Below, piece by piece: positions 5,490 through 14,540 of a DNA stretch of 64,000 bases. The notes under the pieces are model-generated. The model saw only the letters and a program-made list of their open reading frames with translations, did no database searches and was not told the origin of the DNA. The stretch lies in IMG/VR virus record IMGVR_UViG_3300027747_002427; one strand, 5' to 3'. Both the position numbers and the translations under genes were made by a program. Source of the stretch: a virus (Duplodnaviria; Caudoviricetes). How positions within the stretch are numbered: position 1 is the first letter of the stretch; every line of letters starts with the position of its first letter.

Positions 5490-6089
5490 ATGAATCAAGC
5501 TACTTTAAATAGATCACGCAGCGACAAGTTCCTTTTGGTACTTGACTTACCTATTGCTTTAAAAAGTTCTCAGGATACTGTAATACAAGACAAATATTCA
5601 GCCGATCAAATACAGTTTACCATTTACGGATCCCCAGTTCCTAAAATTTCAATTCCAGAAATAAATTTACCATTTGGAGGTCAAGTCTTGAAAGTTTCTA
5701 GCATGTCTCGTCCAGCATATCCATCTTTAGATGTAAAATTTCTAGTAGGTAATGGATATCAAAATTATTGGATTTTATGGAAATGGTTGAATTTGTTTAA
5801 TGATTCTCAAAATAGCACTTCAGATTTAAATATGCAGTCTAGTTTTGTAGGAGAAGATATTAGATTAACAAATTCTTTGAGACGTTATATTTCTGATTTT
5901 ACTCTTTTTGCTTTGGATGAATTTGACAATAGGATTATTTCTTTCAAATATACTAATGCATTTGTTACTTCTCTAGGTCAAATAAATTATTCTTATCAAG
6001 ACCCAGCGGAAATAACTTGTGATGTTTCTTTTGCTTATAATCAATTAGAAGTGAAACTTTTAAAAGATATTAATATATCTTCTTGCTAA
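5490..6089 (+). CDS. Tail tube-fold protein (gp3 tail terminator / gp19-like)
   Basis: SPVPKISIPE...YPSLDVKFLV...NYWILWKWL...DFTLFALDEFDN...YTNAFVTSLGQINYSY tube-fold pattern; near dNMP kinase, gp53 and gp5 as in T4. Confidence 0.6.
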   Translation: MNQATLNRSRSDKFLLVLDLPIALKSSQDTVIQDKYSADQIQFTIYGSPVPKISIPEINLPFGGQVLKVSSMSRPAYPSLDVKFLVGNGYQNYWILWKWLNLFNDSQNSTSDLNMQSSFVGEDIRLTNSLRRYISDFTLFALDEFDNRIISFKYTNAFVTSLGQINYSYQDPAEITCDVSFAYNQLEVKLLKDINISSC

Positions 6090-6092
6090 CGT

Positions 6093-7760
6093 ATGGCTAA
6101 CATTACAATTGCATCTGTAAATCCAGAATCTGGTTCTATTCATATTGCCGGTGCTGAAGCATCAACAACTCCAGGCAATAATAATGATTTAAAATATGTT
6201 TACCAGATAAGAGATCAATTTTATCATTTAGAAACTTGGATGTATAATCAATTTGATGATTATAAACCCTTTCAAGTATCTTTCTTTTCTATAGAAGCAT
6301 TAGCTTTAGAAGAAACATTATTTAATTGGCCTACTAATGGTTGGATGGTTTTAAAAAATGATTTTGAATTATTTGAAAGAGGTTCTTTACCAGTCGATAA
6401 TATAGCTGGTATACCAGCACCTTATATTTTTAGAAGTGATGGTCGTAATAGAATTAATATTAAAATATATCCGATACCAAATCCAGCTGGTATAGTAGGA
6501 GAATCTATTGATAATCAAGAATTGCCTAGAGATTTGTGGGAAATGAATTTTGATTTTGTTATATATGATATAGAAGATTTACCAACAGATAATAATCAAA
6601 ATAAATTACGTAAATTGTATTTTCATGATGAAAGGCTACAAATATTAAAAGAAAGAAATATACAATGGTCTACAGCTAAATACGGACCAAATCAAGGACA
6701 ATTAGGTACTACAGATAAAGCTAGGGCAATGCCTGTAAGTGATGCTATGAAATCTATAATACAAACAGCTGGTTCTAGTAAAAGTGATCCTTTATTTTCT
6801 GATTTAAATGTGGGTTATAATGAAAGTCTAGGTTCTATAAGTGATCCTAAAATTCCTTTAGCTAGTTTCGGAGATTGGGATGAAGGACATGCTCCAAATG
6901 GAGAACCAGTCAATATACTTTATACTTCCCCAGCAGGGTCAAATGCTTTAGAAGATTTAAGTTATTTGTATCAAAATGCAGTTAGTTCTGATGGTACTCC
7001 ATTAATTTTAGATTTTGGTAGAACTACAGATGATAAAAAATTTCATTTAAGACCTCTTTCATATTTTTTCAAAAATGCCGAAAAAAATCAAATAGAAAAA
7101 TTAATATTGGTAGATGGAATATCGCCAGATAAAGCTCTCCCTTATATTCCTAGAGCTCCTAATATGGCTGGAACCGCTATTCAAAATTTTACATCTGGCA
7201 TAGCTTCTCTAATTAAAAGTTATAATTTTGCACCTATGGTCGCAACAGATGACGCAAAAATAACTAATAAACCTCTTCATAATTTTAATTTTGCTAATTC
7301 TGAATTTAATATATATTACGAAGATAACACAGCTGAAAAAATTTCTAAGAATATGGAGGATATGGCAAAACAAGGTTTATATGGTCTTAATAATGGAGGT
7401 CAATTGTTAATGAATATAAACAAAACCAAGCAAACTGGTTTAATGAATACACCTTATTTTGAATCTCAGACATTTTTCCCAAAAAATAAACCTGCTATGT
7501 TGATGATGAAACAAGCATTATTTTTGAATCAAGCTTTATATTTTCAGGTTCCTGGATTAACTTTTAGAACTCCAGGTAAATTTATATTTGTTGACAGAAC
7601 TTCTTCTAGTGATAACAATCCTTTTGATGATAGATTTTTAGGTCAATGGATGATAATTAAAGTTGTTCATTTATTTACAAAAGACAATTATGTCAATGAT
7701 GTAGTTGCTACAAAAATAGATACTTTCAAAAAAATGTGGCCAATTTTAGATAAAAAATAA
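6093..7760 (+). CDS. Baseplate hub protein (gp27/VgrG-hub-like)
   Basis: C-terminal QVPGLTFRTPGKFIFV...FLGQWMIIKVVHLFT...YVNDVVATK is typical of hub proteins; upstream of gp5 genes. Confidence 0.6.
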   Translation: MANITIASVNPESGSIHIAGAEASTTPGNNNDLKYVYQIRDQFYHLETWMYNQFDDYKPFQVSFFSIEALALEETLFNWPTNGWMVLKNDFELFERGSLPVDNIAGIPAPYIFRSDGRNRINIKIYPIPNPAGIVGESIDNQELPRDLWEMNFDFVIYDIEDLPTDNNQNKLRKLYFHDERLQILKERNIQWSTAKYGPNQGQLGTTDKARAMPVSDAMKSIIQTAGSSKSDPLFSDLNVGYNESLGSISDPKIPLASFGDWDEGHAPNGEPVNILYTSPAGSNALEDLSYLYQNAVSSDGTPLILDFGRTTDDKKFHLRPLSYFFKNAEKNQIEKLILVDGISPDKALPYIPRAPNMAGTAIQNFTSGIASLIKSYNFAPMVATDDAKITNKPLHNFNFANSEFNIYYEDNTAEKISKNMEDMAKQGLYGLNNGGQLLMNINKTKQTGLMNTPYFESQTFFPKNKPAMLMMKQALFLNQALYFQVPGLTFRTPGKFIFVDRTSSSDNNPFDDRFLGQWMIIKVVHLFTKDNYVNDVVATKIDTFKKMWPILDKK

Positions 7761-7761
7761 T

Positions 7762-8073
7762 ATGAATAGAGATGAACTCAAAGCTAAATTACAAGAAGCT
7801 CACATTCAACGCTTGGCTTCTTCTAATAAAACCCAATATCCTTCTGCTATGCAAATGGCTAGGAATTTAGGTAGTAGTGTTATTAATAATGCAATGAGTG
7901 TTGCTGCTGGAAATAGTCTAAGAGTAGATAATAGTGTTGCTGAAACTAGATTAAATGTTTGTAAAGGTTGTGAATTTTTTAATCAACTACAAGAAAGATG
8001 TGGTAAGTGTGGATGTAATATGGCTGTTAAGACTTACTTGAGAGCGGAGAAATGTCCGGTAGGAAAGTGGTAA
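7762..8073 (+). CDS. Small Cys-rich conserved phage protein (RLxxCxxC...CxxCGC...CPxGKW)
   Basis: RLNVCKGCEFF...RCGKCGCNMAVKTYLRAEKCPVGKW. Confidence 0.7.
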   Translation: MNRDELKAKLQEAHIQRLASSNKTQYPSAMQMARNLGSSVINNAMSVAAGNSLRVDNSVAETRLNVCKGCEFFNQLQERCGKCGCNMAVKTYLRAEKCPVGKW

Positions 8074-8656
8074 CATAAAAGTCTGCTAAATTTAAAGCTA
8101 TTTTCTTAATTTCTTTTTTATAAACCTTTAAGTCTTTATATTCTAGTGTAAGAATTATTTGTTCTGCTAAAGATCTAATAATTTTATTATTAGTAAATTC
8201 AAAATTATTGGCTGGTTCTAATCCTTCTCTTTCTATATAAAAAAGAGTTCCTTTAACTTCATCCTTTAACCACCAAATTTCGTCTTTGGGGTATTCTATG
8301 TATCTTATATCTGTTATTATAGATATATTATTCTTTGCAAAGGTTTTATCTGCGCTTAATTTCTCTATAAAATAGCGTCCTTTCGTAGTGTTCCTCATTA
8401 GTCTGCCATATTCAACAAACATAGGCCTGAGCAAAGTTTTTTCTTTATCACTATTAGTATAAACTGATAAATTTGTTTTATCTGATATTAATTTATCTAA
8501 ATCTTTTCTTATACAATCACCTGCTATAGAAAATCTCTTAGCTTCTAAATTATATTTTTCTTTAAATGCTTCTATTAAAGCAACACACAAAGAATCTTTG
8601 CCTGCTCTTGCGTACCCCGACAAACCAATCGGAGGGTAAAATAAGCTATTTGCCAT
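8027..8656 (-). CDS. Deoxynucleoside monophosphate kinase (T4 gp1-like)
   Basis: IGLSGYARAGKD P-loop; IITDIRY..E motif. Confidence 0.8.
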   Translation of the reverse strand: MANSLFYPPIGLSGYARAGKDSLCVALIEAFKEKYNLEAKRFSIAGDCIRKDLDKLISDKTNLSVYTNSDKEKTLLRPMFVEYGRLMRNTTKGRYFIEKLSADKTFAKNNISIITDIRYIEYPKDEIWWLKDEVKGTLFYIEREGLEPANNFEFTNNKIIRSLAEQIILTLEYKDLKVYKKEIKKIALNLADFYVTTFLPDISPLSSKS

Positions 8657-8666
8657 AAGTTTTTAT

Positions 8667-8695
8667 ATAATATATTAATTATGGCCACTAGTCAA
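8667..8695 (-). promoter_or_regulatory. sigma70-type promoter TTGACT-N17-TATTAT, 10 nt before ATG 8656
   Basis: Read from reverse complement. Confidence 0.6.
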
Positions 8696-10123
8696 TCTAC
8701 TATTGTAAACAAAGACTCTTTAAAACAATTGGAAGCCTCTTCTGGAATAAAAGCTTCTGGTACTGGACTTACTTTAGATACCTTTAAAGCTAATGGAGAC
8801 GGTAATCAGTATGCTGCTAGATTAGATATGCTAGTGAATGGTAAAAAATCTATAGGTCATGTTTGGGCTATAGATCAAGGTGATCCATATCCTATAACTG
8901 GAGGTACAAGAGGAACATATGTTAATTTTGTAAAATGGTGTAAAGAAAATCATTTATTAGAAGCATTACAGAAACAAACTCCAGCAGGAACTGCAGGAGA
9001 ATTAGTTACTGGCGGAATGTTAGGAATTGATACTTTATTGACTTCACAAATGTTCCAAAATCCTATTACAGGACCAGCACAAAATGCTCCTTGTTTGGGT
9101 GCAGATCTTTTAAATAGTATACACCCTCACATGGTAGAAGGTATAGAAAATTTTTGTAATATTATTCGCACAAGATCATATCTATCTTTACCACCAGGGG
9201 CTTTTGGAGGATTGAGTTCTTTTCTTTATAAAGTACAGGGAGCTATAAGTGGTTTTATTCAAGCATTATATAATGTTTATCACGGGGTTTTATTAATGAT
9301 GCAAAGATTTGCTAATATGATTAACGGACTTTTGCAATCTTTAAATCAATTTATCTATGATTTTATTAGTTACTTTATACCATTAGATTTAATTTGTGCT
9401 ATATTAGGTGCTTTCCAAAGTTTGTTAGATGACGTAGCATTTTTTGCACAACTTTTCGGAGGAGGTGATGGAATTTTTAATGCAATCAATTCAATTCAAA
9501 CCGTTATAAATTTTGCTGCTCAAGGTTTAAATTATGCATACAATCCAATATCTTTAGCTGGTTTGATTCCGGGTGTTAATGATGTATTTAAAGCTTTAAA
9601 TCAATTATCATCAGATCCAGAAGCTTTCATGGGTCAATTAATTTCTCATTTTGGATTTTCTGCTGGGGCTGGAAACAAAGCTGTACAAATTGCAAATGCT
9701 ATTCTTTTACATTATGGGTTAGAAAGTCAATTAGGTCCATTAGGTTCTGTATTGTTGTCTCAAGGTGTTGCTGGAAATAGCAGTCAATGGTATAGATCTG
9801 GTGATACTGGAACCGGTAATTTTGGTAATCTTGCTTATGGTAATGTTATACCAAACCCAGGTTATATAGATCCAGATAATCCTTTTAGTTTCTTGGACGT
9901 AAATTCTAATCCATATTTTAATAAAGCTAAAGCAAACATAGAAGATTTTAAAACTAATGCGCGCGCTATACCAGCTGCAGCTGGTGCAGCGGCAGCTGAA
10001 GTGGGAGCTATACCGGGTAATATTGCAACTTCTGTTGGTAATTTCTTTAATCCTAATGCAGCTCCTCAACAAGTTGCACCAGTGACTCCAACACCAGTGG
10101 TTGCAAATCCAAATAATCCTTAA
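8681..10123 (+). CDS. Hypothetical structural protein with a long hydrophobic helical middle
   Basis: 480-aa ORF between hub and gp5 genes; phage-like codon usage. Confidence 0.7.
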   Translation: MATSQSTIVNKDSLKQLEASSGIKASGTGLTLDTFKANGDGNQYAARLDMLVNGKKSIGHVWAIDQGDPYPITGGTRGTYVNFVKWCKENHLLEALQKQTPAGTAGELVTGGMLGIDTLLTSQMFQNPITGPAQNAPCLGADLLNSIHPHMVEGIENFCNIIRTRSYLSLPPGAFGGLSSFLYKVQGAISGFIQALYNVYHGVLLMMQRFANMINGLLQSLNQFIYDFISYFIPLDLICAILGAFQSLLDDVAFFAQLFGGGDGIFNAINSIQTVINFAAQGLNYAYNPISLAGLIPGVNDVFKALNQLSSDPEAFMGQLISHFGFSAGAGNKAVQIANAILLHYGLESQLGPLGSVLLSQGVAGNSSQWYRSGDTGTGNFGNLAYGNVIPNPGYIDPDNPFSFLDVNSNPYFNKAKANIEDFKTNARAIPAAAGAAAAEVGAIPGNIATSVGNFFNPNAAPQQVAPVTPTPVVANPNNP

Positions 10124-10135
10124 TAATAAAATAAA

Positions 10136-11236
10136 ATGGAGCCAATCAAGGGTATACATTTAGGATTAGTAGTTAGTAGTTCTCCGGATCCAGAAGGAAG
10201 AAATAGAGTTCAAGTATGGGTACCACATTTATCCAATACACTTTATGGACCTTTAAATCAAAAATTAAAAGATGTAAAATTTAAAGGCCCAGAAGATTTA
10301 AATACTATAGACAAAGACATTTTAATTACTTTACAAACCACATTGCCTTGGGCAGAATATGGAGCACCTTTATTTGGAGGTTCTAGCGGAGCTTTTAACA
10401 CTGCTACCGGACAAACAGCAGTCAATAGTGGTTCTACTTTTCAAGGCAGTGGTAATGCTGCTCCTTTTTTGCCTACAGCTTCTGCAAATATGAAGACAGA
10501 TGGTACTAAACCAGCTACGCCTTCTGCTGGAGTTATTACAGCATCAAGAACCCAACCCACTCTCACCCAAAGAGGTATTAGTTTTGCCTCTGGAATTATA
10601 AATTTGGCTTTACCAGATGGTACAACGAAACAATATCCTTTTAATAATGGCGGTGGTGGAGCGGGTGCAATACCTGCTGGGAATTACACAATTTCAAATC
10701 CTCAAATAAGAAATACACCAGGGATGGTTGTAGATGGAGTAGGTTATTCTTTTAATTTAAGTGATATTTATGATCCAGCAGCCGGTCGTAATAGAACTGA
10801 ACTTCGTATACATCCAGATGGAGGGGCTACAGGAACCGCTGGATGTATTGGTATTGTAGGTGATGGTAATACTCAATCTCAATTTTATAAAGATTTAAAT
10901 TCCGTTTTAGCAGCTAATGGTGGTGTTTATAATTTAAACATAGTAAATGATCTTCCGGGAGATGGAACTGGTAAAATTAATGATCCGGATCCTACAAAAC
11001 CAAGTGTTTCTACTGGTAGTACATCTGGAGCAAAAGGTGTAGTATATCCAGATAGATCTGCTGCTGTAGGTTGTGTTCCAAGTAATGTAGGTACACCGGG
11101 ATCTCCTGTAGGAACTTTTTCTACTCCTAATGGTGGAACAAAAGTTTGGGTGTTCTTCATGGGCGGCGATGCTCAGAGACCAGTTTATTTTGCTCAGTCC
11201 CCTAATCCAGGAGATGTAAATGCTTTACGCGGTTAA
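10136..11236 (+). CDS. gp5-type OB-fold baseplate protein with inserted Tlde1/DUF2778-like L,D-transpeptidase-fold domain
   Basis: OB halves HLGLVVSSSPDPEGRNRVQVW..LPWA and GTFSTPNGGTKVWVFFMGGDAQRPVYF flank AIPAGNYTI...RTELRIH226PDGGATGTAGC237IGI. Confidence 0.8.
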   Translation: MEPIKGIHLGLVVSSSPDPEGRNRVQVWVPHLSNTLYGPLNQKLKDVKFKGPEDLNTIDKDILITLQTTLPWAEYGAPLFGGSSGAFNTATGQTAVNSGSTFQGSGNAAPFLPTASANMKTDGTKPATPSAGVITASRTQPTLTQRGISFASGIINLALPDGTTKQYPFNNGGGGAGAIPAGNYTISNPQIRNTPGMVVDGVGYSFNLSDIYDPAAGRNRTELRIHPDGGATGTAGCIGIVGDGNTQSQFYKDLNSVLAANGGVYNLNIVNDLPGDGTGKINDPDPTKPSVSTGSTSGAKGVVYPDRSAAVGCVPSNVGTPGSPVGTFSTPNGGTKVWVFFMGGDAQRPVYFAQSPNPGDVNALRG

Positions 11237-11238
11237 AA

Positions 11239-12489
11239 ATGGAACCTGATTACGACATACATTTAGGTTTAGTAGTTAGTAGTTCTCCAGATCCTGAAGG
11301 AAGAAATAGAGTTCAAGTTTGGATTCCTTATTTGTCTAACACGCTTTATGGACCTTTAAATCAAAAATTAAAAGACGTGCATTTTAAAGGACCAGAAGAT
11401 TTAAATAATATAGATAAAGATATTTTAACTATATTACAAACCACATTACCTTGGGCAGAATGCGCCGCTCCTTTGTTCGGTGGTTCTAGTGGAGCTTTTA
11501 ACACTGCTACCGGGCAAACAGCAGTCAATAGTGGTTCAACAGTTCAAGGTAGTGGTAATGCTGTTCCGTCTTTACCTACTGCAACACCAAATATGAATGT
11601 CACCGGGATCAAACCAGATAATATTAATGGTTCTTACGGAAATGCTAGTAGTCTTGGTCTTCCTTCTGGTTGGAATAAAGAATCTGCTTATGATAAACAA
11701 GGTAGACTTGCTACAAAAGGTAATACATTACAATTTATATCAGCTCAAGAGTTGCACAATATAAATTTAAATGCAGCACAAAATGGAGGTCTAGCAGGTT
11801 TAGCTGCTCCGAAAGATTCTAGTTATTTTACACCAGGTACAACAACAACTGCTGCTCAATGGGCAAATTATATGGATGCTATAGCTTTGCATGAAAACGT
11901 CGGTCTTGGAGGAGGTAAGGGAGGAGGTACATACTCTTCAGTAAATGGTTATATACCAATTAATGTAACATATAATGAAGGTTATAAAAACAATGGACCG
12001 ATACATTGGTCTGAAGGTATATATCAAATGACTGTAGGGGAAAATGGATTGAATAGTGATAACATTTATGATCCAAATGCTCAGGCAGCAGCTTTTACAC
12101 AAAGAGCACGAGATTTTGCAGTTATAGCAGGTGCTAAAAAAGGAGATTGGTCAATAGGTGATAGTGGTATTGCTGCTTATGGATGGAACAGGGCTGCAAA
12201 TGATGTAGCAGCAGCAAATGGTAATAATTCTAATGATTTATTAAATAATGTTTCTTTGCCTCAAGGTGCACAAAGTAATGGAACCCGACCAATAACTTAT
12301 ACGGATAAATCAGCAGCAGTAGGTTGTCAACCCAGCAATGTAGGTGCACCTGGTGCTCCTGTAGGAACCTTTTCTATCCCAAATGGTGGAACAAAAGTTT
12401 GGGTATTCTTTATGGGTGGAGATATACAAAAGCCGGTTTATTTTGCTCAAGCCCCAAATCCCGGGGATATAAATGCCCTACGAGGTTAA
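11239..12489 (+). CDS. gp5-type OB-fold baseplate protein with inserted lysozyme-like/SLT domain
   Basis: Same OB halves as the upstream paralog; insert WANYMDAIALHE219...SEGIYQM...NIYDPNAQAAA fits lytic transglycosylase motifs I-III. Confidence 0.75.
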   Translation: MEPDYDIHLGLVVSSSPDPEGRNRVQVWIPYLSNTLYGPLNQKLKDVHFKGPEDLNNIDKDILTILQTTLPWAECAAPLFGGSSGAFNTATGQTAVNSGSTVQGSGNAVPSLPTATPNMNVTGIKPDNINGSYGNASSLGLPSGWNKESAYDKQGRLATKGNTLQFISAQELHNINLNAAQNGGLAGLAAPKDSSYFTPGTTTTAAQWANYMDAIALHENVGLGGGKGGGTYSSVNGYIPINVTYNEGYKNNGPIHWSEGIYQMTVGENGLNSDNIYDPNAQAAAFTQRARDFAVIAGAKKGDWSIGDSGIAAYGWNRAANDVAAANGNNSNDLLNNVSLPQGAQSNGTRPITYTDKSAAVGCQPSNVGAPGAPVGTFSIPNGGTKVWVFFMGGDIQKPVYFAQAPNPGDINALRG

Positions 12490-12503
12490 TTATAATTAAA
12501 TAT

Positions 12504-14540
12504 ATGCCAAAACCAATAGATTATACAAAAAATAAAGAATCTCAAGTACACCATACATCTGGAAGATATAGTGGTATACAATTTGTAGATAATAAACAGG
12601 TAGATCCTAATGGTTCTCAAAGTCCTAAAGATAAATCATTTTCTTATTGGGGTAATTCTTGGAACACTTTTACTAAAATATTTACAGGCAATATTTTTTC
12701 TAATGCTCCCGGAAATATTAGTTTAAATGCCGGGGAAGAAGTGCATATTACTGCTCATAATAAACAAGAAACTACTTCTGGTGGTAGTGCAGTTTATAAT
12801 AAAGGCGAAACAGTTCATAATCATGGAGAGATGACTGATGAAGATAAAGCCAAGATGAAAGAATATCAAGGTTATCTAGATCAGATAACTCAAAAAGCAC
12901 AAGATGCAATAAAAAATACTGCTGCAGAAAAAGTAACTTGTCCTAATTGTGCTCAAATGCATCTAATAGATGATAAAAGCGATCAATGGGTTATTATTTT
13001 AGATTATATAAGAAGAATAGTAGATAACTTTCCTTATCTTACTTTTCCTTTTGCGGTTTTAAGAACTTTAATTATGAAAGTTTATGTTCCTCTTTTAGGA
13101 CAAAAAACTAATTTAGGCCTTAATGGAGGGGAAGGGTGTGGACCAGGATGTAAAAGTGGAGAAAAGGATGGGATGTCTTTAAAAATGCAGGCCGGTGAAA
13201 AAGCTGTAAAAGATGAAATGGAAAAATTATCTGATAAGATGAACAAATTAACAATAGCTATGAAAAATTCTTCAGCTACTGCTAAAGTTCATAAAGATAG
13301 TGAAATACATATATATGGTGATCCTACAGCTGGTCCTCCTAAAACAAAACCTTATGTGACCCCAGGACCACATCATTCTTTGCCTATGAATTTGAGAGTA
13401 TCAGATTCTTGGAGAAATAAATTAAGAGTATCAACAGAAGGTAATTGTAAAGTAGTAGTTTATCAACCACCATTACATTCTCCATTTGGTAATCTAATGA
13501 TGCAAGTTCAAAATAATTTAAAAATTACTACAGGTAATGCTGGCATGGATCTTATGTCTACCGGGGAAATAGCTGTAAAGGGTGGATCTGTGCACGTCAA
13601 TGCATCAGAAGGAGAACTTTCTATTACATCTAAAAACCTTACAACTATAGGTGGTGGTAATGTTTTAATAGCTGCAGATAATAAATCTGGTGATACAGGA
13701 GTATGTATAGATGCTAAACACACATATGTGAGAGGTGCTTTTAATGTTAATGGTGATGCAGCTGTGCTCGGTGCTCTTACATTAGACGGGCCTCTATCAG
13801 TTCCTTATATTAATTGTCCTACTATGGCAGCTCCTACTACTTTAAACGGATCTTCTAAATACGCAAATCATCATGCAAATTGGGAAGAATTTGGGGCAGC
13901 TTTAAATGCTCTCAATTTTGAAACAGATTTAATAACAAAATTTTTATTCCAACCTAGTTTACTATTAACTGGATCTGGATTAACTGAAATTATTATGGAA
14001 GCTTATAATTTAATTATGATGGCTATATTTATAGAAATACTTCCTACTGGAATATTCATAGGAGCCGGAGTAGGGCTTGGTGCTTGTGCTGTTGCTGGAT
14101 TAGTTTGGAATTTTACTCATAACCATACCCAGGCTCCTCAAGATCATACTCATGAAGTTGCCGTTCCTAAGGGAGGATCTTGGAAAACATTAGCTGGTGC
14201 CGGTCAACAAAGAGCTGCTGGTAATCCAGCCCCAACAGTTGCTCCTACAAGTGGTACGTGGCCTTCTCCGGGACCTAGAGCACTGGGTGGTGGTTGTGGT
14301 GGTGGTGGATTGTTTAAAAAGGCTCGCAATCAAAATTATGGTATTGATAGTGAAGACGCTTTCAATGGTGGTAACTATGTCAATACAACTGTTGTGAGAA
14401 ATCCAGACGGGTCTATATACCCTCCACCAGATTTAACCTATCGTGTTGTTAATGACACGGGACCAGCTCCAAAGATTGATCCGGTTACTGGTAAGGTTAT
14501 TATTCCAGATACTACACCTGTAAATGTAGCTTGTGATTAA
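12504..14540 (+). CDS. Central spike protein (gp5 C-terminal / gp138-like beta-helix with HxH apex motifs)
   Basis: Start revised from 12324 to MPKPID (12504). Beta-helix repeats LKITTGNAGMDLMSTGEIAVKGGSVHVNASEGELSIT...; THNHTQAPQDHTHEV. Confidence 0.75.
   Translation: MPKPIDYTKNKESQVHHTSGRYSGIQFVDNKQVDPNGSQSPKDKSFSYWGNSWNTFTKIFTGNIFSNAPGNISLNAGEEVHITAHNKQETTSGGSAVYNKGETVHNHGEMTDEDKAKMKEYQGYLDQITQKAQDAIKNTAAEKVTCPNCAQMHLIDDKSDQWVIILDYIRRIVDNFPYLTFPFAVLRTLIMKVYVPLLGQKTNLGLNGGEGCGPGCKSGEKDGMSLKMQAGEKAVKDEMEKLSDKMNKLTIAMKNSSATAKVHKDSEIHIYGDPTAGPPKTKPYVTPGPHHSLPMNLRVSDSWRNKLRVSTEGNCKVVVYQPPLHSPFGNLMMQVQNNLKITTGNAGMDLMSTGEIAVKGGSVHVNASEGELSITSKNLTTIGGGNVLIAADNKSGDTGVCIDAKHTYVRGAFNVNGDAAVLGALTLDGPLSVPYINCPTMAAPTTLNGSSKYANHHANWEEFGAALNALNFETDLITKFLFQPSLLLTGSGLTEIIMEAYNLIMMAIFIEILPTGIFIGAGVGLGACAVAGLVWNFTHNHTQAPQDHTHEVAVPKGGSWKTLAGAGQQRAAGNPAPTVAPTSGTWPSPGPRALGGGCGGGGLFKKARNQNYGIDSEDAFNGGNYVNTTVVRNPDGSIYPPPDLTYRVVNDTGPAPKIDPVTGKVIIPDTTPVNVACD

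Follow-up and report, generated by a model that had tools for sequence, protein, structure and literature searches.

Predicted cell-wall enzymes carried as exchangeable cassettes within the OB fold of two tandem spike-head paralogs: a probable split central spike in an uncultured freshwater myovirus

The central spike protein gp5 of bacteriophage T4 is made as one polypeptide, composed of an OB domain, a GH24 lysozyme and a helix, in which the whole OB domain (residues 6-129) stands ahead of the lysozyme (PMC3004832). In the gp5-gp27 complex (PDB 1K28; PMC3004832), the OB domain is an adapter under the hub, the enzyme is held on long linkers and the needle is a trimeric beta-helix; cleavage on maturation leaves gp5* (OB and enzyme) and gp5C (needle) as separate chains. 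The spikes of P2 (gpV), Mu (gp45) and P1 and the VgrG proteins of type VI secretion systems (T6SS) have OB domains of the Pfam family PF04717 that hold no enzyme. T6SS spikes carrying effectors and VgrG heterotrimers are known, and they are the nearest conceptual parallel to the locus described here. In the gp5 proteins of Ackermannviridae (CBA120, ViI), a CHAP/NlpC-P60 domain replaces the T4 lysozyme (Kutter et al. 2011, PMC3184105). Here we report the analysis of a 64,000-nucleotide stretch (the window) of the virus record IMGVR_UViG_3300027747_002427, in which three adjacent genes, called here A, B and C, probably encode a gp5/gpV-type central spike that is split into pieces and whose enzymes, inserted in the OB domain, are exchanged as cassettes.

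The host genome of this locus is that of an uncultured myovirus of ~203 kb and ~32% G+C from freshwater metagenomes. Its terminase is ~30% identical to those of the best cultured phages and, as far as sequence tells, the phage is only distantly T4-like. The three genes are co-oriented and tightly packed in the tail module, downstream of a tape-measure-like gene, on the + strand, as are all features given below unless otherwise stated. Gene A (slot a; 10136-11236, 366 aa) is assigned as an OB-fold spike-head subunit with a YkuD/Tlde1-like insert, gene B (slot b; 11239-12489, 416 aa) as an OB-fold spike-head subunit with a lysozyme/SLT-like insert and gene C (12504-14540, 678 aa, ATG at 12504) as a separately encoded spike needle. 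Only 2 nt separate the stop codon of A from the start of B, and C starts 14 nt past the B stop codon. No match for A, B or C was found in PHROGs, and the INPHARED phage collection (50,697 GenBank phage records) returned nothing for A or C at either the DNA or the protein level. Scans for sigma-70 and T4 late promoters gave results at or below chance.

Like cleaved gp5* and gp5C, A/B and C are separate chains, and the OB adapter, the tethered enzyme and the needle of T4 all have likely counterparts. By contrast with T4, three genes with two paralogous heads take the place of a single polypeptide, and the topology differs since the T4 OB domain is complete ahead of the lysozyme whereas the enzymes of A and B lie within the OB domain. 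Neither A nor B matches PF00959 or Gp5_OB: their OB domain is of the PF04717 type and their enzymes are not GH24, which separates them from the T4 gp5 lysozyme. With P2 gpV, Mu gp45, the P1 spike and VgrG, they share the Pfam family and the fold, but not the lack of an enzyme, and they also hold a resident helical segment of ~60 aa with an LPWAE motif. CBA120 resembles the present case in showing that a gp5-type spike can exchange its enzyme for an unrelated peptidoglycan hydrolase; it differs in being a single gene with T4-like order and with flanking regions shared with T4 gp5, and neither tandem paralogs nor strain-level turnover have been reported for it. The preliminary description of this locus, made from the letters of the window, regarded the arrangement as undescribed. 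This has to be narrowed, since enzyme replacement in gp5 is published (CBA120, PMC3184105). What is new, as far as we found, is the insertion inside a PF04717 OB fold, the pairing of paralogous heads with independent cassettes and the extent of turnover between near-identical flanks.

Comparison of A and B by BLASTP aligned residues 1-126 with 106/126 identities (E 6e-71) and the last ~60 aa with high identity, the middles being unrelated. A recount returned the figures first given for the two ends (97/110 N-terminal and 53/63 C-terminal identities), as well as the positions of His226 and Cys237 in A and of Glu219 (in ALHEN), GIYQM (at 260) and NIYDP (at 275) in B. In A, the N-flank (aa 1-103; 10136-10443) comprises the first OB strands and a conserved helical segment with LPWAE, its end being the left recombination border of slot a; the C-flank (aa 298-366; 11027-11236) comprises the last two OB strands and the tail found ahead of the needle in fused relatives, its start being the right border. 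In B, the corresponding flanks are aa 1-119 (11239-11596), with a predicted local distance difference test score (pLDDT) of 80-93 over aa 1-78, and aa 354-416 (12298-12489), with the last two OB strands and a C-terminal helix at pLDDT 87-95. At the protein level, A and B are 89% identical over the N-flank and 85% over the C-flank.

The preliminary description read these flanks as the two halves of one OB domain, and two lines of evidence bear this out. First, Pfam PF04717 matches both proteins above its gathering score of 23.8 (A 322-351, 25.9 bits; B 372-401, 29.2 bits), the match being confined to the second half of the profile (positions 41-70 of 75). In insert-free relatives, the two halves of the profile are found in a single protein, positions 1-36 at residues ~10-44 and positions 43-70 at ~152-180. 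The ~105 aa between the two half-matches form a resident helical segment with an invariant LPWAE motif, and the enzymes of A and B are inserted after this resident segment. Second, B was modelled with AlphaFold on an alignment of 80 rows that covers the flanks deeply, and the model has flanks at pLDDT 80-95 with five strands (8-12, 25-28, 72-75, 386-391 and 399-404). In structural comparison by VIA, residues 3-411 of this model, that is both flanks without the looped-out insert, align with spike OB domains of known structure. The best match is the phage P1 baseplate spike (Z 10.1, root-mean-square deviation 1.9, 80 aa, 32% identity), followed by the PVC spike (Z 9.1), cyanophage A-1(L) (8.7), AFP (8.4) and VgrG1 (7.9), and residues 6-129 of T4 gp5 are matched at Z 7.7. 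As judged from this model, the flanks of B form a spike-type OB domain of the PF04717 family, to which those of A are assigned by their identity to B.

The needle was also recognised from its relatives. In an iterated search with C, a separate needle gene stood directly downstream of a standalone OB gene in 31 of 31 cases. In all 40 relatives in which OB domain and needle are fused, the homology to C covers the C-terminal ~600 residues, and the needle part begins 15-30 residues past the last OB strand. Such a pattern of fusion strongly indicates that A/B and C act as one spike, and the homology of C to the C-terminal part of fused spikes upholds the early assignment of the needle to a third gene. 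A profile of 19 needles matches the beta-helix of T4 gp5 (residues 443-533, E 0.005), 16 of its 18 PDB hits being gp5 constructs, and C has a weak DUF2345 match in Pfam. The leads of an Atlas search with the needle were all below 0.9.

Two groups of residues are invariant among the 19 needle homologues. Cysteines C146, C149, C212 and C216 (12939-13151), arranged as CxxC ... CGxPxC in the helical middle part, are a candidate metal site. Two HxH motifs (H539/H541/H548/H550; 14118-14156) follow a hydrophobic stretch (aa 496-537), and we take them to resemble the metal-binding apex of P2 gpV-type spikes. Past the HxH motifs come a conserved Pro-rich tract, a GGCGGGG tract, an RN..YG motif and a C-terminal Cys. 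These sequence features suggest a needle with a metal-bound tip, metal binding being presumed, and an extra C-terminal module.

The insert of A (aa 150-272; 10583-10951) is predicted with pLDDT 85-97. In VIA, residues 150-275 of the A model match 47 PDB entries of the YkuD fold with Z 6.5-9.1, the next row being unrelated at Z 3.4. Z values of 8-9.1 were obtained with Pgp2, YkuD, LdtMt1, Csd6, Bd1075 and Tlde1a (8.1); LdtA is also among the matches, as is DpaA (Z 6.8). The fold is thus the one common to Tlde1a (7UMA), Csd6 (4XZZ), Pgp2 (6XJ7), Bd1075 (7O21) and DpaA (8IKR). The predicted catalytic residues are His226 (10811-10813) and Cys237 (10844-10846), together with Thr234 and Gly236, in the sequence IHPDGGATGTAGCIG. 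The motif His226 ... Thr234-x-Gly236-Cys237-Ile238 fits the His ... (S/T)-x-G-Cys-hydrophobic pattern of L,D-transpeptidases, for which residues H121/S128/C131 of Tlde1a are described (PMC9638812); the spacing of 11 residues between His and Cys is close to that between H121 and C131. His226, Thr234, Gly236 and Cys237 are invariant in 73 of 73 homologues. Fold and motif agree with the L,D-transpeptidase-type fold first proposed for this insert. As is the case for Tlde1, the domain would be delivered by a contractile injection machine, with the difference that it is covalently built into the spike and not loaded as cargo.

The closest sequence relatives of the A insert are secreted, non-phage proteins of ~220 aa from Myxococcota (50-57% identity, E ~1e-37), in which the YkuD-like domain is C-terminal to PG_binding_1/PG_binding_3 domains. 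They belong to a large family of bacterial homologues of A residues 165-269 (P0042-P0120), mostly of Myxococcota and ~220 aa in length, whose YkuD-like domain has no Pfam annotation. Such sequence kinship suggests gene transfer between bacteria and phage, the source being an uncharacterised secreted wall enzyme. Of the phage lytic proteins in PhaLP, only 10 entries are of the YkuD type (PMC8310338). The insert would be an enzyme of the peptidoglycan peptide stem, of the L,D-transpeptidase or L,D-carboxypeptidase type. Its chemistry may consist of stem trimming, of cutting 3-3 cross-links or of a DpaA-like release of L,D-linked proteins; cleavage of 3-3 cross-links or of L,D-linked outer-membrane tethers, rather than stem trimming, may be the role of the YkuD-fold cassette.

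The insert of B (aa 165-336; 11731-12246) was assigned to a lysozyme-like/SLT-like domain by its fold matches in VIA, namely DslA (Bd0314, Z 8.4, 138 aa aligned), MltE (6.7), human lysozyme (5.9) and MltF (5.7). These Z values are middling, yet the alignments span most of the domain. The putative catalytic residue Glu219 (11893-11895) does not vary among 5 close homologues, nor does the Glu aligned with it among 16 remote ones. The residue that follows is Asn in B and Ser in most relatives, and further motifs of the family are S-x-G-[LI]-[FY], then N-[IV]-Y-[DN]-P. DslA (6TAF) and MltE (2Y8P) have the same lysozyme-like fold and the same conserved Glu followed by Ser/Asn; in contrast with DslA and SLT proteins, the B family is very small and divergent. 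An exhaustive search of 1.84 billion representatives with the B-insert profile returned only 19 relatives, about a third of which are spike OB proteins: 6 of the 16 remote homologues carry a spike OB domain, and 6 of the 16 carry Pfam SLT (PF01464). In agreement with the reading of this insert as SLT/lysozyme with a conserved Glu, the model points to a lysozyme/SLT-like fold with a plausible catalytic Glu, which would be that of a hydrolase or a lytic transglycosylase.

A pair of near-identical flanks in a metagenome could arise from misassembly of two strains, each with one allele, the more so as the same lakes also harbour strain variants with other cassettes. Several observations make this explanation extremely improbable. 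A 1131-bp contig (10243-11373), present among the Logan unitigs of two runs, extends from the A N-flank across the A/B junction into B, at a depth (10.8 and 25.2) equal to that of the neighbouring unitigs, and the only long exact repeat between A and B, a 32-mer (10241-10272 = 11344-11375), has double that depth. The A-B-needle order recurs in independent JGI assemblies (L081, 93.8 kb; L082), so that assemblies of several samples agree, and three further tandem lineages exist. Junction depth and independent assemblies thus show the duplication to be genuine, which answers the caveat attached to it in the preliminary description.

The two copies appear to have diverged long ago. Their flanks are 80-82% identical at the DNA level (312/378 in the N-flank, 153/192 in the C-flank), with 59-65% identity at third codon positions versus 87-92% at first and second positions. 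By the Nei-Gojobori method, the ratio of nonsynonymous to synonymous divergence (dN/dS) between the flanks is 0.09, with a dS of 0.69 for the N-flank and 0.98 for the C-flank; dN/dS values of pairs containing L001 are invalid owing to indels. A dS of 0.7-1 with a low dN/dS indicates that the duplication is old, that both copies are under purifying selection and that little substrate is left for collapse. The proposal that the homologous flanks would allow collapse by recombination is therefore not borne out: exact repeats do not exceed 32 nt, the copies differ at synonymous sites by 0.7-1, and neither deletion nor chimeric joints at A/B were seen in unitigs and contigs, which cannot reveal rare variants. 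Concerted evolution of the copies was considered and rejected, since slot-a flanks group together across strains and dS between the copies is 0.7-1.

Purifying selection also bears on the idea that only one paralog is structural, with the other either serving as a wall enzyme (free, ejected or acting late) or decaying as a spare copy. The existence of close relatives with a single OB gene is in its favour. However, both copies have complete OB flanks with a dN/dS of 0.09 or lower, both keep invariant catalytic residues and the pair is kept in four diverged lineages, which makes a structural role for only one of them improbable.

In order to survey the family, IMG/VR was scanned with the family alignment, giving 80 loci, and hidden Markov models of the flanks then found both flanks in 71 proteins. 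In 22 of these, which are plain OB-needle fusions, no more than 55-85 aa separate the flanks, and ~600 residues come after them. The remainder have a small insert (6/71), an insert of one-domain size (23/71, or 25 with A and B of the window) or an insert of more than 340 aa (20/71), and fusion of OB domain and needle occurs among relatives with or without an enzyme insert. The insert cores of 105 family members fall into ~20 clusters that BLAST cannot relate; this count is approximate, as BLAST clustering is prone to over-merging via linker residues and two-domain inserts. The few inserts named by Pfam are Phage_lysozyme, Glucosaminidase, CHAP, NLPC_P60, Phage_lysozyme2, SLT and Tlde1; a Hedgehog-N (LAS peptidase)-like domain also occurs. 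One insert (L013:7001-8128) has a weak match, below cut-off, to fungal chitosanase GH75 (E 0.0014). If real, the latter would point to a deacetylated-glycan target and would fit the best fold match of B, the deacetylated-peptidoglycan lysozyme DslA.

Some single inserts, in fused OB-needle proteins of distant relatives, hold two domains in tandem. In L019:7001-8641, the Hedgehog-N/LAS-peptidase-like domain and Phage_lysozyme lie in one insert, and in L056:5999-7654 an unknown domain of ~215 aa is combined with a Tlde1-like domain 56% identical to that of A. Other loci with inserts of more than 340 aa are L015-L033. As read from their sequences, two-domain inserts are another way for one spike to carry two activities, and the need for two enzymes recurs.

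The tandem is found in four lineages, each with a different combination of slots: YkuD-like in slot a and B-type in slot b (the window), P0004-type and B-type (L001), P0002-type and P0007-type (L083), and P0002-type (97% identical to P0002) and P0005-type (L085/L086). With the slot-a flanks of L083 and L085, the A flanks of the window share 99-100% (N-flank) and 94-96% (C-flank) identity, the inserts being unrelated, and the B N-flank is 96% and 94% identical to the slot-b flanks of L083 and L085, respectively. Slot-a flanks thus group with slot-a and slot-b flanks with slot-b, which indicates that the duplication predates the strains and that the cassettes were replaced independently in each slot. 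Comparison by hhalign detected no relation of the B-type insert to the slot-b inserts of L083 (P0007) and L085 (P0005). Atlas leads below threshold point to SLT/lysozyme for P0007 and to CHAP/NlpC for P0004, and a rule by which slot a holds a peptidase and slot b a glycosidase is plausible but unproven.

The borders of the cassettes are visible in the DNA. In blastn against L083 and L085, collinear homology of 86-93% stops at 10443 and resumes at 11027; in slot b it ends at 11540-11596 and resumes at 12298-12309. In a freshwater run (X4), variant contigs part from the window at 10440, 11027 and 11537; the stretch without a match ahead of 11027 encodes the end of a P0002-type insert. Over 9800-12800, this run holds at least two strains, one near-identical to the window and a second with flanks 90-95% identical, whose divergence sets in precisely at the cassette borders. 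A single JGI sample yielded both the window type (L082) and the L085 type (L086). Exchange of payloads at homologous flanks, suggested earlier from the window, is thus seen directly in close relatives as breakpoints at the flank borders around unrelated inserts.

These data lead us to propose that A and B are paralogous spike heads whose N- and C-flanks would co-fold into an OB domain, the OB trimer being seated between the baseplate hub and the needle. Two long flexible linkers would hold the enzyme, spliced into the connection that leads to the last two OB strands; in the B model, two low-confidence stretches of ~40-60 residues lie within residues 80-160 and 300-367. A would act through its YkuD-fold Cys/His enzyme on peptide stems and B would cut glycan strands, while C would form a beta-helical needle with its own metal-binding tip. 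Since the needle is made as a separate protein, proteolytic maturation of the T4 gp5 type would not be needed. Tail contraction would drive the needle through the outer membrane, after which the tethered enzymes would open the peptidoglycan locally; local digestion after contraction is described for T4 gp5* (PMC3004832). Cassettes would be exchanged between related phages, independently for each slot, by homologous recombination in the conserved flank DNA.

As the hub- and needle-facing flanks are common to both paralogs, A and B should compete for one set of three positions. One outcome, which belongs to the split-spike proposal, is random co-assembly into A2B and AB2 trimers, so that most virions would be armed against both peptides and glycans. 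In its favour, A and B share 85-89% identity over their flanks and have the same needle-proximal C-terminal tail, and the genes are co-oriented and 2 nt apart, which makes roughly equal synthesis likely; moreover, single-gene relatives often hold two enzyme domains per insert, suggesting that two activities are useful. The persistence of slot-a and slot-b flanks as distinct lineages (dS 0.7-1) could equally mean that each prefers itself. On these grounds we consider mixed trimers a serious possibility, if somewhat short of an even chance. The alternative is that each virion has either A3 or B3, the mixed progeny serving as a hedge across hosts or states of the wall. The central spikes known from phages are homotrimeric (T4 gp5, PMC3004832), and the slot-specific flank differences are kept across strains, slot-a flanks being nearer to other slot-a flanks than to their own slot-b neighbour. 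However, flank divergence of 11-15% may not suffice to stop mixing, and alternative homotrimers seem rather unlikely. Prediction of an A and B complex with custom alignments scored 0.04, which is evidence for neither side. We infer that the enzymes are active, that both proteins are present in virions and how the trimer is composed. A further step, which we regard as speculative and doubtful in its full form, would be a programmable two-slot spike, in which heterotrimers bring peptide-stem/L,D-link and glycan cutters together in each virion and each slot is re-armed independently by flank recombination.

Several points weigh against the proposal of a split spike armed with two wall enzymes. 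In the A model, for which the flank alignment is shallower, the insert is folded while the flanks are at pLDDT 30-60, so that the OB assignment of A rests on its 85-89% flank identity to B. The Tlde1_dom match of the A insert (176-252) reaches 22.2 bits (E 2e-4) and falls below the gathering score of 30.1, as does that of its L056 homologue (15.8 bits); the insert was therefore filed as YkuD-fold and Tlde1-like, not as a member of Tlde1 (PF10908). L,D-carboxypeptidases of the YkuD fold trim stems and not cross-links, and the contribution of A to breaching the wall is uncertain. No Pfam match was found for the B insert and no PDB sequence match for its profile. Two enzymes are not obligatory, since the P0003 and P0006 genomes, which are close syntenic relatives, have a single OB gene. 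Finally, the putative baseplate hub, a 555-aa protein (6093-7760) with a match to PHROG 350 'tail protein' (E 9.7e-6), would be gp27-like by its position only: it is kept upstream of the spike genes in all close relatives and has no sequence match in Pfam or PDB.

Tail-associated wall enzymes are usually viewed as a fixed part of the spike. In this small lineage of uncultured freshwater T4-like phages, ~20 unrelated inserts occupy one site inside the OB domain, co-occurring strains of one lake differ only in their cassettes, and the duplication gives two slots that can be exchanged independently. This points to penetration as a step at which the cell-wall chemistry of the host exerts selection. 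Together with the long linkers, the conserved flanks amount to a natural scaffold tolerant of very different payloads, and the inserts supply new, unannotated candidate peptidoglycan hydrolases. The paired heads also raise a question not posed before for phages, that is whether the central spike can be a heterotrimer. If a two-slot heterotrimer does exist, wall penetration, beyond receptor binding, would be a fast-evolving determinant of host range, and the spike would be the phage counterpart of T6SS VgrG heterotrimers with exchangeable effectors.

The other genes of the tail module are arranged as follows. A tail tube protein gene (5490-6089, 199 aa) precedes the putative hub gene; its product gave no match in a Pfam search, and its syntenic ortholog in P0003 carries PF23849 Phage_TTP_2. 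Directly upstream of A lies the gene of the 480-aa tape-measure-like protein (8681-10123; PHROG 305 'tail length tape measure protein', E 6e-6), which is syntenic in relatives. Between the putative hub gene and the tape-measure-like gene stands a small gene for a Cys-rich DUF6171 protein (7762-8073). Its end is overlapped by a dNMP-kinase-like gene (PHROG 139; 8027-8656), which lies on the - strand and thus in the opposite orientation inside the tail module. Both the dNMP-kinase-like and the DUF6171 genes occupy the same position in all close relatives.

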